Assembly (NCBI GenBank): GCA_038046625.1
Contig: JBBSVV010000005.1
Span: 55,693 to 72,122 of the forward strand
Direction: 5' to 3'
Length of the DNA: 16,430 bases
Source of the DNA: an archaeon
GTDB lineage: Archaea > Iainarchaeota > Iainarchaeia > Iainarchaeales > Iainarchaeaceae
The position numbers were made by a program, and so were the translations under genes. The notes beneath the pieces were generated by a model that worked only from the letters and a program-made list of their open reading frames with translations, did no database searches and was not told the origin of the DNA. Shown here one piece after another: positions 3,874-15,192 of the stretch (its first letter is position 1; every line of letters starts with the position of its first letter).

Positions 3874-4377
3874 ATGACGCAATGGCACCACAAGGGCAAA
3901 AGAACCAAAACCGGCGCAATGCGCACCTCGTTGAGGCGAAGCGACAAGAGATTGGCGTGGAAAGGCGGCGACCCCGTGCACACGACTATTGCACAGGACG
4001 AAAAGGCAATTGAAAGGGAAAAGGAAAAGAAGATGGGCAACTCCCTGAAAGTCAGGCTGAAAAAGGACAAATTCATGTACGCAACGGATGCCCACGGAAA
4101 AACCAGGAAACTCGAAATTCTTGCTGTCGTTGAAAACGATGCGGACCGCCAATTCGCCAGGCGAAACGTAATAACCAAAGGCGCGGTTGTCAAGGCAAAG
4201 AGCGGAGACCACGAAGTTTTTGCCAGGGTAACGTCAAGGCCGGGGCAGCATGGCACCATTACCGGAAAAATCCTTGAAAAGTACGAGCCCAAGAAAGCAG
4301 GGGCTTCTTCCGAACATTCAGAAAAGCCCAAAAAGGCCGAAAAACGCAAGAAACAGGCGAAAAGGATCGAAGAGTGA
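3874..4377 (+). CDS. rps8e: 30S ribosomal protein S8e with Lys-rich C-terminal extension
   Basis: KRTKTG, GNSLKVRL, VVENDADRQFARRNVITKGAVV and ARVTSRPGQHG motifs. Confidence 0.95.
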   Translation: MTQWHHKGKRTKTGAMRTSLRRSDKRLAWKGGDPVHTTIAQDEKAIEREKEKKMGNSLKVRLKKDKFMYATDAHGKTRKLEILAVVENDADRQFARRNVITKGAVVKAKSGDHEVFARVTSRPGQHGTITGKILEKYEPKKAGASSEHSEKPKKAEKRKKQAKRIEE

Positions 4378-6259: not shown

Positions 6260-6271
6260 GAAAGTGGTTTG

Positions 6272-6766
6272 ATGGCTCACTGGAAAAAAAGAGGCTTTGA
6301 TGATGACACTCTTGATTTCGAGAGCCTTGAGGAGATGCTCGAGGAGCTTGTTTTTGAAAATTTCAGGGCAGAGGACCTTGATTTTACGAAGCCGCTTGAC
6401 ATCGGCTTCAACATCAGCATTGATGACAACGGGCATCTGCACATAAACGAGTTCGGGGTAATAAGGCCACAGTACGCAAAAGAAAAAAAGGCCGAGGAAA
6501 AGCCGCTCGTTGAAATGATTGACCTTGGAAGGGAAATACTTTTGGTAGTTGAAACCAACACTTTATCGGAAAAGGAGCTTGACATACGGGTTATGGACCA
6601 CGCGGTGCTGATTTCAAACCACAAAAACAGGAAACAGGTGGACAAAATAGTTTTTCCGGAAAAGGTTGTTGAGGAAAGCATCCGCAGCAGCTACAACAAC
6701 GGGATTCTTGAGCTGAGGTTCTCGAAGAAAGCCGGGAAAAAGAGCGTTGCGGAAGAAAAAAAGTGA
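6272..6766 (+). CDS. hsp20: Archaeal small heat-shock protein (Hsp20/alpha-crystallin)
   Basis: GFNISIDDNG..INEFG, PLVEMID..ILLVVE and SSYNNGILEL pattern of archaeal Hsp20. Confidence 0.85.
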   Translation: MAHWKKRGFDDDTLDFESLEEMLEELVFENFRAEDLDFTKPLDIGFNISIDDNGHLHINEFGVIRPQYAKEKKAEEKPLVEMIDLGREILLVVETNTLSEKELDIRVMDHAVLISNHKNRKQVDKIVFPEKVVEESIRSSYNNGILELRFSKKAGKKSVAEEKK

Positions 6767-6929
6767 AACAACCCAACCCCCTACGGGGGTTCCGTTGACG
6801 GTGAGTTTGCTTCGCAGCAACCCAAGACCCATAAAAGGAATTTCGTTGACGGAAAGCCCACCTTGCACCAAATGGCACGAGGTCTCGTCCCCGTAGGGGG
6901 CAAGACGCCTTTGGGCGCGGGTAATTCAC
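6767..6929 (+). mobile_element. Non-autonomous IS200/IS605-family remnant: right end / TnpB omegaRNA-like scaffold without ORF
   Basis: Removing a 43-bp insert and one AC copy restores AAGCCCACGCCTTTGGGCGCGGGTAATTCAC, a typical IS605-type right-end hairpin ending in TCAC; upstream stem 6790-6800/6844-6854; GTGAGTT (6801-6807) complementary to terminal AATTCAC. Confidence 0.72.
6862..6904. repeat. 43-bp palindromic mini-insertion with CTTGC/GCAAG terminal inverted repeats flanked by AC direct repeats
   Basis: AC[CTTGCACCAAATGGCACGAGGTCTCGTCCCCGTAGGGGGCAAG]AC interrupts the 5' arm of the right-end hairpin. Confidence 0.65.
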
Positions 6930-7495
6930 TGCAGATTTTTTTCAGGATTTCCGGCGCCTGCATTGGCCGTTGAATCATCGTCTTCCGGAAGGCCCTCAAT
7001 CTCCTTCTCGCTTTGCGCATTCACTGCGGATTTCTTTGCCGCACTTGCAAAGTACTCGCGGAATTTTGGGGTCGTGTTGATAATGTAAGTTATTCCCTTC
7101 TTATCTTTTTTTATGAATCCCTTTTCGCGCAGCACCCTGATGTGCTCGTACGCCTTGCTGTTCCTGAAGTTAATTACCTCTGACTGCTTAACCGGCTGCT
7201 TGTAGGCAATGTATGCAAGGGTTTTCATTATGCCCTTGTTCAGTTCCGGGGAAGCAGCCATGTGGCCGACGTTATCCTCATATTTCCTGCGCACCGTCAT
7301 GCGGATGCCGCCGGCTTCATCCCTGATTTCTATGGAACTGTCCCGGGATTCATATTCGTGCATCAGTTCGTTCACTAAAACACGGGTTTCCGCAACGTTG
7401 GAGTTTATGCTTTTGGCCAGGTCCCTGAGGGCAACCACTCCTGGCGACATGAATAATGCGGCCTCAAGCATCTTTTTTGATTCTTTTTTGTCCAT
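6926..7495 (-). CDS. scpB: SMC-Scp complex subunit ScpB
   Basis: LEAALF, KTLAYIAYKQPVKQSEV..RNS.AYEHI..L.EKGFI and TTPKFREYF motifs; unstructured acidic tail. Confidence 0.93.
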   Translation of the reverse strand: MDKKESKKMLEAALFMSPGVVALRDLAKSINSNVAETRVLVNELMHEYESRDSSIEIRDEAGGIRMTVRRKYEDNVGHMAASPELNKGIMKTLAYIAYKQPVKQSEVINFRNSKAYEHIRVLREKGFIKKDKKGITYIINTTPKFREYFASAAKKSAVNAQSEKEIEGLPEDDDSTANAGAGNPEKNLQ

Positions 7496-13262: not shown

Positions 13263-13337
13263 CATCCACAAAAAAGAGAGAGAGCATTATTGCGGCTAAT
13301 AGCAAAATATTTCAATCAGAATGCAGTATTTCTCTGC

Positions 13338-13718
13338 ATGAAGTACGAATTCGATGCCTACTGGAGCGGAAAGGCTCACGAAATGGCCGCGAGCCTTGGT
13401 TACTCGCACGTTATTCCCGAGCGCTTAAGCGTTGTGCGGAGCCGCGGCTCAAAAACCAGGAGAACCATTGCGCGCATACACTGCATCGGCAAGGTAATGA
13501 TGCTGGGGATGCAGCAGCGCAAGAGCTTTTATGTGATTGAGCTCATTTCCGAAAAATTTGACAGGCAACCAGAATCCGAGAAGCTCGAAACAGTCATCCA
13601 CGAATTAATGCATATCCCGAAAACATTCGGCGGCGGCTTCCGGCACCACGACCATGTTTGCTCGCAAAATGTGAAGCTTGAGCTTGAAAGGTACATGAAC
13701 CAGAAAAAGATTTCCTGA
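13338..13718 (+). CDS. Small HExxH zinc metallopeptidase-like protein (archaeal predicted metallopeptidase family)
   Basis: RSRGSKTRRTIARIH, YVIELISEKFD, VIHELMHIP..F.GGFRHH; ATG at 13338. Confidence 0.85.
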   Translation: MKYEFDAYWSGKAHEMAASLGYSHVIPERLSVVRSRGSKTRRTIARIHCIGKVMMLGMQQRKSFYVIELISEKFDRQPESEKLETVIHELMHIPKTFGGGFRHHDHVCSQNVKLELERYMNQKKIS

Positions 13719-13802: not shown

Positions 13803-13808
13803 ATTGCC

Positions 13809-14423
13809 ATGGCTTTTGAAGTACCAAAACTAAAGTATGATTACAATGCGCTCGAACCGTACATAGATGAGCAGACAATGAGAATCCATCACGACAAGCA
13901 TCATCAGGCCTACGCGGATAAGCTCAACGCCGCAATAAAAGGGACAGAATGGGAAAAGAAATCAATCGAGGAAATAATTGTGAATTTGAACACGGTTCCT
14001 GAGAACATTCGCGGGCCCGTAAGAAACCATGGCGGGGGCCACTACAACCACTCGCTTTTCTGGGAGATGATGGCGCCGAAATCAGGCGGAATCCCGCAGG
14101 GCGAAATAGGAAAAGCAATCAATTTGACTTTCGGCTCTTTCGACAAGTTCAAGGAAGCATTTACCGCTGCCGCAACTGGCCAGTTCGGCTCGGGATGGGC
14201 ATGGCTGGTTGTGGGCAACGGAAAGCTCGAGGTTGTCTCGACGCCGAACCAGGATAATCCGTTGACGCAGGGAAAAAAGCCGGTTTTGGGAATTGACGTA
14301 TGGGAACATAGTTACTACATCAAATATCAGAATAGGCGACCAGAATACATCGCAGCATTCTATAATGTCATAAATTGGAAGAAGGTAGAAGAGCTCTATA
14401 AGGCAGCTATGAAGAAAGCTTGA
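13809..14423 (+). CDS. sod: Fe/Mn superoxide dismutase
   Basis: [54 protein letters not shown] pattern is Mn-like or cambialistic. Confidence 0.98.
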
Positions 14424-15066
14424 TTTTCAGCCAGTTTTCTGCATAGCCTATTTTTTCTTTTTTTAGTTTAGTAGTGTGAATGTTTTCAAAAAATTTCCTG
14501 ATGTATTCTTTTTTGTAGATTCTTAAATGGTAAATCTTTTTCCTATAAAAACCGTCTTTTCCCAAATGGGCCTCTTGAGAAGAATAATTGGCGGTTATTC
14601 CCAATTCAGAGTCCAGCATTCCCCTAATTATTTCCAAAAGACCATGGTTAGTGTTAGTTATATCAAGACAAATTTTTGGCGTCTTCCTCACTTTTTCTTT
14701 TATGATTTTTACACAACCTTCTGCATCAAAAAAACCTTCGACAAACAGCAAAGAAGTTACATGCTTGTCGCTTTTTTCTGCCAACACACCTATTTTTTCC
14801 AAATTATTTCTGATATCTCCAAATAAGTCGTATAATTTTATATTTGATATCTTGACAAACCAATAACCTCTTTTTCTGTTCGGGTAATTTTTTACAACTC
14901 GCCCTATGCAAAATGACAATTTATCGGCAAATTTTTTTGTGAATGCCTCATCGCCTACTAGCCATACTTGGTGCTCTTTCCCCCAATGATAAATGCAGCC
15001 GTCGCCAAGCAGAGCGCCCAAAACATAGAACAGCTCGTTGTTAAATTCAAGTTTTGCAATAGGCAT
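14407..15066 (-). CDS. Free-standing double-motif LAGLIDADG homing endonuclease
   Basis: [11 protein letters not shown] and [11 protein letters not shown] motifs; markedly AT-rich; ATG at 15066 (219 aa); no intein splice residues or host exteins. Confidence 0.88.
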
Positions 15067-15192
15067 TATGTTACGTTTCCAATTAGAGGTTATATTCTCA
15101 TTTAGACCACTTTGCCGGTGTGAATTTGTTTTCAATTTTTTTGAACCAGAAAGCCTTTTAACCAATTAACTTCTAATTCTAATGGTGCAAAA

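Follow-up and report, generated by a model that had tools for sequence, protein, structure and literature searches.

The passages of Dyall-Smith et al. (2011, PMC3119063) drawn on here describe the PATEs of haloarchaea as elements without a transposase which share near-terminal palindromes and a terminal oligonucleotide with IS605-type elements and which cause no target duplication; they also report mini-copies of 52 bp that consist of the termini only, and small repeats (SMR-A) that insert beside the near-terminal palindrome. Bacteria possess REP, BIME and REPIN repeats together with the Y1 transposases RAYT/TnpA-REP (cited parts of PMC3333891, PMC2817692, PMC3337134 and PMC6006769), and the last of these sources sorts Y1 motifs into classes in its Table 1. 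At IS608-type ends, as outlined in the sections used of PMC6006769 and PMC3119063, the hairpin foot is preceded on its 5' side by a guide tetranucleotide which reads the cleavage site. Here, we analysed a 161-nt element (positions 6769-6929), too short for a transposase gene, which lies between the convergent genes hsp20 and scpB in a 16,430-nt stretch of DNA (G000:C5:55693-72122, hereafter the window) from the DPANN, Iainarchaeota-like genome G000 (986,348 bases or 0.99 Mb in 57 contigs, 84.6% complete, GC 0.48). From stop codon to stop codon, the structured 159-base spacer is entirely occupied by this element, which a preliminary description had put forward as an orphan TnpB omegaRNA, with an inert PATE-like remnant as the fallback. 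Our analysis favours the fallback, which fits best on the evidence: the element is probably a gene-less, non-autonomous mosaic derived from IS200/IS605 and similar to PATEs and REP/BIME repeats, and most likely a remnant of a transposon rather than a guide RNA in its own right.

Judged by sequence comparison, the right end of the element (6905-6929) is a genuine IS200/IS605 right end. In G001, a sister genome of the same genus (assembly 87% complete), the Y1 transposase profile PF01797 gave seven matches, several of them at contig ends, and all three copies with the 3' flank on the contig (L171, L173 and L174) read tnpA followed by GAAGCCC-ACGCC TTTA GGCGT-GGGTAATTCAC. This tnpA encodes 148 aa (PF01797, E 3e-28) in a tnpA-only element of the IS200 type, and the 602-nt insertion sequence (IS) matches G000 over its last 26-40 nt only, at eight places including the window. 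When the module was called in relatives by a tail with at most two mismatches and a folding hairpin, it was found to close five of 20 TnpB loci and five of 20 Y1 loci fetched from the order, and it is likewise present in four of eight close metagenome relatives of the G001 tnpA. One of the loci in the order, L132 of genome G058, represents a complete element of the IS605 type, in which tnpA is truncated and the TnpB of 392 aa is intact (PF01385, PF07282 and PF12323). The IS605-type right-end hairpin ending in GGGTAATTCAC, which had been recognised in the preliminary description, is therefore real, as it closes Y1-tnpA as well as tnpB elements in relatives. In intact copies, a GAAGCCC box stands immediately 5' of the right-end hairpin and pairs with GGGT..TTC, which fits the same arrangement as that of the IS608-type ends. 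The shared right end would explain the origin of at least part of the hairpin family to which the remainder of the element belongs.

This family became apparent when the spacer was searched against G000, an assembly which is fragmented at repeats. The search returned 30 matches, to separate sub-stretches of the spacer; the core unit is made up of CAACCCAA, a variable hairpin and TTCCGTTGACGG. A regular expression for this unit found 31 units in 21 arrays of one to four units each, and a covariance model (R1, built from 16 copies and applied at E <= 0.01) found 37 in the 0.99 Mb; CCGTTGACGG occurs 23 times against 1.9 expected, and the linker hairpin TTGCTTCGCAGCAA five times against 0.007 expected. 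A right-end tail is located within 110 nt in only four of 20 G000 arrays. The exact unit pattern is present in seven of 61 genomes counting G000, i.e., in six of 60 relatives (21 matches in G000, 16 in G001, five in G013, three in G003, two in G021 and one each in G010 and G027), while the reversed pattern used as a control gave no match in any of the 61. In a collection of named species, the pattern hit 40 stretches, 26 archaeal and 14 bacterial; many of the archaeal ones come from Candidatus Iainarchaeum andersonii and further metagenome-assembled genomes of the Diapherotrites/Iainarchaeota type. The bacterial inserts fold with a mean of only -0.46 kcal/mol (n = 14), compared to -5.08 kcal/mol for the other 61 distinct units, and their number is, by our own estimate, about that expected by chance. 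No match was obtained in viral contigs, and no description of the repeat family was found in the literature searched, which is weak evidence of absence.

Both the unit hairpin and the right-end hairpin are more than chance features, because their stems covary across copies. Among 49 distinct copies of the unit hairpin, 32 cells were changed on both sides, a value reached in 0 of 500 shuffles (8.9 +/- 2.3 after shuffling), and the stem is 94.9% paired compared to 4-50% in slid controls; among 21 right ends, double-sided changes affect seven of 12 pairs and amount to 26 cells against 8.2 +/- 2.3 after shuffling (0/500).

Some of the units deviate from the usual length of about 52 nt. Copies of about 80 nt at C4:1316-1395, C11:3330-3410, C32:1449-1531, C16:7792-7874 and C46:153-231 of G000 appear to have the variable hairpin swapped for a longer insert. 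Variation was also observed at the right end. Mini-elements of 44 nt (G000:C3:28963-29006, C3:67372-67415, C29:5716-5759 and C36:7767-7810; L066:349) read (TG)AACAACCCAAAACAATCC, hairpin, GGGTAATTCAC, which is the left terminus fused to the right end without the TTCCGTTGACGG box. A second type of tail, GGGAGGATGTCA(C/T), closes other Y1 elements (L187, L189 and L191 from metagenomes, L161 of G001) and also follows unit arrays in G000 (C22 ~4240-4270 and C41 ~27280-27310); L188 has both types in tandem. In L132 (1740-1828), the 103 nt from the tnpB stop to the right end hold GGAACAACCC, a hairpin and TTGACCAC-GAAGCCC, an order which resembles that of the 64-75-nt composites of G000, and the unit model gives no score there.

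The window element itself would thus comprise, as compiled in the table, a pair of REP-like hairpin units with a linker hairpin, a double-hairpin insert (module C) and the IS200/IS605 right end. The linker is also present between units in C50, C49, C31 and C2 of G000, and the 33-mer of unit 1 recurs identically at a non-orthologous position in G001. The insert of unit 2 folds weakly (-0.9 kcal/mol). Module C separates the AAAGCCC box from the right-end hairpin and is missing from the otherwise colinear 64-75-nt composites, e.g. that on C31; its copies gave neither a tRNA nor an Rfam RNA match. The module is common to a second G000 repeat family of about 170 nt, of which it forms the core and whose ends resemble TATAGCAAACC...GGTTTGCTATA (C50:18917-19083, C41:~34253-34419, C15:~13807-13909 and C2:~14380-14524, i.e., loci L015, L009, L012 and L004); at the C50 site this second family is present in G000, and G001 has a 66-nt composite of unit and right end there instead.

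Features of the hsp20-scpB region, in window coordinates.
Feature	Position	Strand	Basis or remark
hsp20 (HSP20-domain gene)	6269-6766	+	PF00011 E 6e-5; stop TGA 6764-6766
Left flank GTGAAA	6763-6768	+	contains the hsp20 stop TGA
Unit 1: CAACCCAA 6769-6776, covarying hairpin CCCCC-TAC-GGGGG 6777-6789, box TTCCGTTGACGG 6790-6801	6769-6801	+	R1 54 bits, E 2.6e-14
Linker TGAGTTTGCTTCGCAG with hairpin TTGCT-TCGC-AGCAA (6807-6820)	6802-6820	+	joins tandem units; overlaps the start of unit 2
Unit 2, degenerate hairpin: CAACCCAA, GACCCATAAAAGGAA, TTTCGTTGACGG	6818-6852	+	regular-expression match; R1 G000:C5:62502-62554, E 2.2e-6
Box AAAGCCC	6853-6859	+	alignment, pair counts; consensus GAAGCCC in intact right ends
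Module C, 45-nt double-hairpin insert	6860-6904	+	six other copies aligned
Right end: hairpin ACGCC-TTTG-GGCGC 6905-6918, tail GGGTAATTCAC 6919-6929	6905-6929	+	tail contains the scpB stop TCA
Stretch proposed as guide	6930-6949	+	antisense of the last scpB codons; T7 run 6936-6942
scpB	6926-7495	-	PF04079 E 1.3e-31; stop TCA 6926-6928

The comparison of related genomes shows the element as an apparent insertion and its family as apparently mobile. The convergent hsp20/scpB pair is kept in 12 relatives, 11 from the same family and one from another family of the order, with spacers of 12, 33, 60, 20, 14, 0, 56, 35, 74, 4, 78 and 3 nt, and neither the unit nor the right-end tail occurs in any of these 12 orthologous spacers. 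The hsp20-scpB region is not present in the G001 assembly; the G001 locus L090, considered as an ortholog, was rejected, as it carries an identical unit at a non-orthologous locus. Elsewhere, the genes flanking the arrays are 80-97% identical in DNA between G000 and G001, yet whole arrays differ: at L095, G001 has a 186-nt array where C42 of G000 has an intact site just past a stop codon, at L099 it has a 142-nt array where C17 is uninterrupted, and at C50 the two genomes carry different elements. The idea that the repeats are better conserved than the genes between the two genomes was discarded on account of this identity of the flanking genes. Among the contigs of four DNA runs, the element was found in place in X6 and X8; breaks of the assemblies fall within the unit, and a direct junction of hsp20 and scpB is not present on any contig. 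Two of the three polymorphic sites lack a target duplication, and the window copy has no flanking direct repeat of at least 10 nt. In 16 of 20 G000 arrays and 15 of 25 other arrays, a TGA or TCA precedes the first unit at a distance of 0-2 nt, compared to 10.6% of random positions. This T(G/C)A in the flank is the stop of a frame of at least 80 codons in only five of 21 arrays and the start of one in two of 21, and therefore the motif belongs to the element or its target and not only to the neighbouring genes.

Based on these findings, we propose that the copies would spread in the form of single-stranded DNA hairpins, which a Y1 (HUH) TnpA provided in trans would cut and rejoin, and that they may land beside a motif containing T(G/C)A, which would explain why many copies abut stop or start codons. 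The window copy itself is probably immobile by now, since no tnpA is present in the assembly and the 45-nt insert parts the right-end hairpin from its 5' box. Transcription of hsp20 or scpB would then yield a 3' untranslated region, predicted to be strongly folded, ahead of oligo-T runs. Oligo-T stops archaeal transcription. Mirror runs are found inside the 3' ends of the two genes, A7 at 6756-6762 in hsp20 and T7 at 6936-6942 in scpB; either convergent transcript would therefore reach oligo-T only beyond the element, inside the opposite gene. It might further be speculated, although we regard this as rather unlikely, that the units are the archaeal counterpart of REP/BIME repeats, spreading by themselves via an IS200-type Y1 transposase without a RAYT and docking on T(G/C)A at gene ends, and that copies which have captured a right end, the window copy among them, may still be read as guide RNAs by TnpB in strains or relatives that encode it.

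Several observations weigh against the reading as a mosaic derived from IS200/IS605. The relatives with short spacers belong to other genera (ScpB identity 52-72% for the 11 of the same family and 50% for that of the other family), and an empty site in the same species was not found among the contigs of the four DNA runs. PF01797 gave no match in G000, leaving mobilisation within this genome without a candidate in the assembly. The R1 model had no significant match in 46 TnpB or Y1 loci and none in 13 metagenome loci; in eight further loci there was one weak match, cut off from the Y1 gene by another gene. At one of the three polymorphic sites, TCA[A/T] is found on either side. Finally, the two ends of the element are partly complementary (GTGAA-ACAA-CCC / GGG-TAA-TTCAC, 5 + 3 bp), while PATEs by definition are without this feature. 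The possibility that the unit forms the left terminus of Y1 or TnpB elements was rejected, as it was not found in these 46 + 8 + 13 loci.

The alternative that had been proposed for this spacer is a stand-alone omegaRNA gene, in which read-through from hsp20 would produce a scaffold extending to TTCAC, followed by a guide from the scpB 3' end, for use in trans by a TnpB or dead TnpB. Its structural basis held up in part. All listed stems are present, including AACCCCC-TAC-GGGGGTT (6775-6791) and TTGCT-TCGC-AGCAA (6807-6820), and the 11-bp stem between 6790-6800 and 6844-6854 is a real pairing with tandem U-G/G-U wobbles, but it is a by-product of two direct, quasi-palindromic TTCCGTTGACGG boxes; in 15 of 21 G000 arrays this stem cannot form because there is only a single unit and hence no partner. 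Similarly, GTGAGTT (6801-6807) and AATTCAC (6923-6929) are complementary as stated for the putative pseudoknot, which, however, receives no support from other copies: among those compared, the linker TGNGTT lies between unit and right end only in the window, and in C31 it follows the right end. Covariation, suggested as a means to judge the structure, was found for the unit and right-end hairpins. The search for further copies in the genome, likewise suggested, gave the repeats and seven other right-end places in G000; a tnpB with such an ending was found in relatives.

In favour of an omegaRNA, the right-end module is the same as in TnpB-bearing IS605 elements of the order (L132, and L142/L183 from the same taxonomic family), there is complementarity between the 5' end GTGAAACAACCC and the 3' tail, L132 has GGAACAACCC about 75 nt before its right end, followed by ...TTGACCAC-GAAGCCC, and PATEs are stated to 'often encode omegaRNAs' used in trans (in the part cited of PMC10055086). 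However, the absence of tnpB and tnpA which had been noted for the locus holds by profile searches for the 84.6%-complete assembly of G000 as a whole (PF07282 best E 0.11, PF01385 no match; PF01797 as given above), and PF07282 is equally without a match in the 87%-complete assembly of G001; TnpB is common in the order, being encoded in 42 of 151 genomes. In G001, this identical right end is part of an element with tnpA alone, and such an element has no omegaRNA. Beyond the right end, the window showed no similarity to the final 300 nt in five TnpB elements (best E 0.25), and the sequence upstream of the right-end hairpin is not a tnpB 3' end but is made up of repeat modules which occur independently at many loci, alone or in tandem and mostly without a right end. 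In addition, a transcript would stop at the T7 run, 7-13 nt beyond TTCAC, and the right end is interrupted by module C. The orphan omegaRNA is thus unsupported, and we consider a stand-alone gene of this kind very unlikely. Rfam did not contribute to this question: at gathering thresholds it gave nothing on the window, and at lower stringency two chance C/D-box matches inside hsp20 only (E 4.5 and 10), but as six TnpB or Y1 loci from the order likewise yielded nothing except one tRNA, the blank is uninformative on an omegaRNA.

Another explanation would be that the element, whatever its transposon origin, is a REP-type structure kept by the host, which protects or terminates the convergent hsp20 and scpB transcripts or binds a chromosomal protein. 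Its exact fit from stop to stop into the convergent spacer would agree with such a role, as would stems kept by compensatory change and the strong fold on both strands (plus strand -67.0 kcal/mol, z -2.80, 0 of 200 shuffles as good; minus strand -70.7 kcal/mol, z -2.82, 2 of 200 as good). As the fold is stronger than in shuffles on either strand, its energy gives no strand preference; the minimum-energy fold skips the local hairpin at 6775-6791, and the stretch pairs instead with a perfect 12-nt inverted copy at 6889-6900, so that the inverted repeat 6777-6788 / 6889-6900 joins unit 1 to module C. Bacterial REPs, moreover, are mostly located downstream of genes and are considered to act as RNA elements (PMC3733652, in the sections cited). 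However, in all 12 relatives compared the orthologous spacer works without the element, close genomes differ in the presence of arrays, and compensatory change is equally expected for transposition hairpins, and host-kept function is in our view unlikely. Likewise very unlikely is an ordinary miniature inverted-repeat transposable element, for which a DDE transposase would recognise GTGAA(A)CAACCC / GGGTAATTCAC. The reverse complement of the left end, GGGTTGTTCAC, is indeed within two mismatches of the tail GGGTAATTCAC, and the polymorphic site flanked by TCA[A/T] would be in line with such a mechanism. Against this, duplication is irregular, with none at two of the three polymorphic sites and none at the window, and the right end is common to Y1 and TnpB elements, neither of which relies on inverted repeats; a DDE transposase between such ends was not seen, although no search of DDE families was made. 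The mosaic derived from IS200/IS605 hence remains the explanation that we favour. Integron attC sites, K-turns, bulge-helix-bulge motifs and a CRISPR-like array were dropped on sequence alone: the units of 31-37 nt are in tandem and free of open reading frames in between, and they did not appear to fit the core motifs.

The other genes of the window are archaeal and include those for TFIIB, a Hef-type helicase/ERCC4 nuclease and RNase HII, among others; no tRNA or tmRNA gene was found in the window. An open reading frame of 252 aa with a LAGLIDADG_3 domain (14407-15165, minus strand, E 1.3e-12) is located between the genes for superoxide dismutase and transaldolase, and another of 142 aa (13290-13718, plus strand) matches PF18894, a putative phage metallopeptidase (E 1.5e-13).

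What looked like an orphan guide RNA is, by our analysis, a documented case of gene-less repeats, probably derived from IS200/IS605, in a tiny DPANN genome. What is new is the link of the repeat family to known transposons, which rests on the right end that both have in common. The 148-residue TnpA, the right-end module and the mini-elements of 64-75 nt and 44 nt provide substrates for testing how Y1 transposases may shape archaeal genomes of very small size. In the annotation of such genomes, a structured spacer at the end of a gene should be compared with this family before an RNA gene is called.

The modular elements of Streptococcus pneumoniae known as BOX, boxA-(boxB)n-boxC, show a similar build, as they combine a left module, variable tandem internal units and a right module able to pair with the left; unlike the window element's right end, however, BOX is not known to be linked to IS200/IS605, and the two are without sequence relation. 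When compared with TnpB omegaRNAs, PATE-borne ones included (PMC10055086), the window element has the 3' terminal hairpin and tail of right ends which follow tnpB in some relatives, and a guide would likewise be read from flanking DNA; in contrast to these RNAs, it is accompanied by no tnpB found in G000 or G001, has no tnpB-derived 5' scaffold, and its right end is interrupted. The likeness to REP and BIME repeats, as portrayed in the cited sections of the papers on bacterial repeats, extends to imperfect palindromes which are short and combine conserved flanks with variable stems, to the location of many copies between genes, often clustered into mosaics and often just downstream of genes, and to a structural similarity to IS200/IS605 ends. 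The reverse strand of the unit starts with CCGTC, which recalls the CGTC-tagged REPs (PMC3733652). In contrast to REP/BIME, the host is an archaeon and no single-copy RAYT flanked by units was found: the Y1 genes of G001 and its relatives are not flanked by units, and those found in the genus are without exception multi-copy and of the IS200 type, with the motifs DHVH / WS / YVRAQ.

The closest described kind of element is the PATE of haloarchaea. The window element departs from it in its left end, a distinct REP-like unit that is not at the left end of any IS examined, as well as in the tandem arrays of units with linkers and in the partly complementary ends; in its tandem and modular build, the left part is closer to the REP/BIME mosaics of bacteria. 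Like the PATEs, however, as these are characterised in the passages cited at the outset, the window element is too short for a transposase, possesses at its right end a near-terminal palindrome and an IS605-type terminal oligonucleotide and is here without a target duplication, while the terminal-only versions of PATEs have their likeness in the 44-nt mini-elements of G000, and the SMR-A insertions theirs in the small repeats of the window that are inserted next to the near-terminal palindrome.

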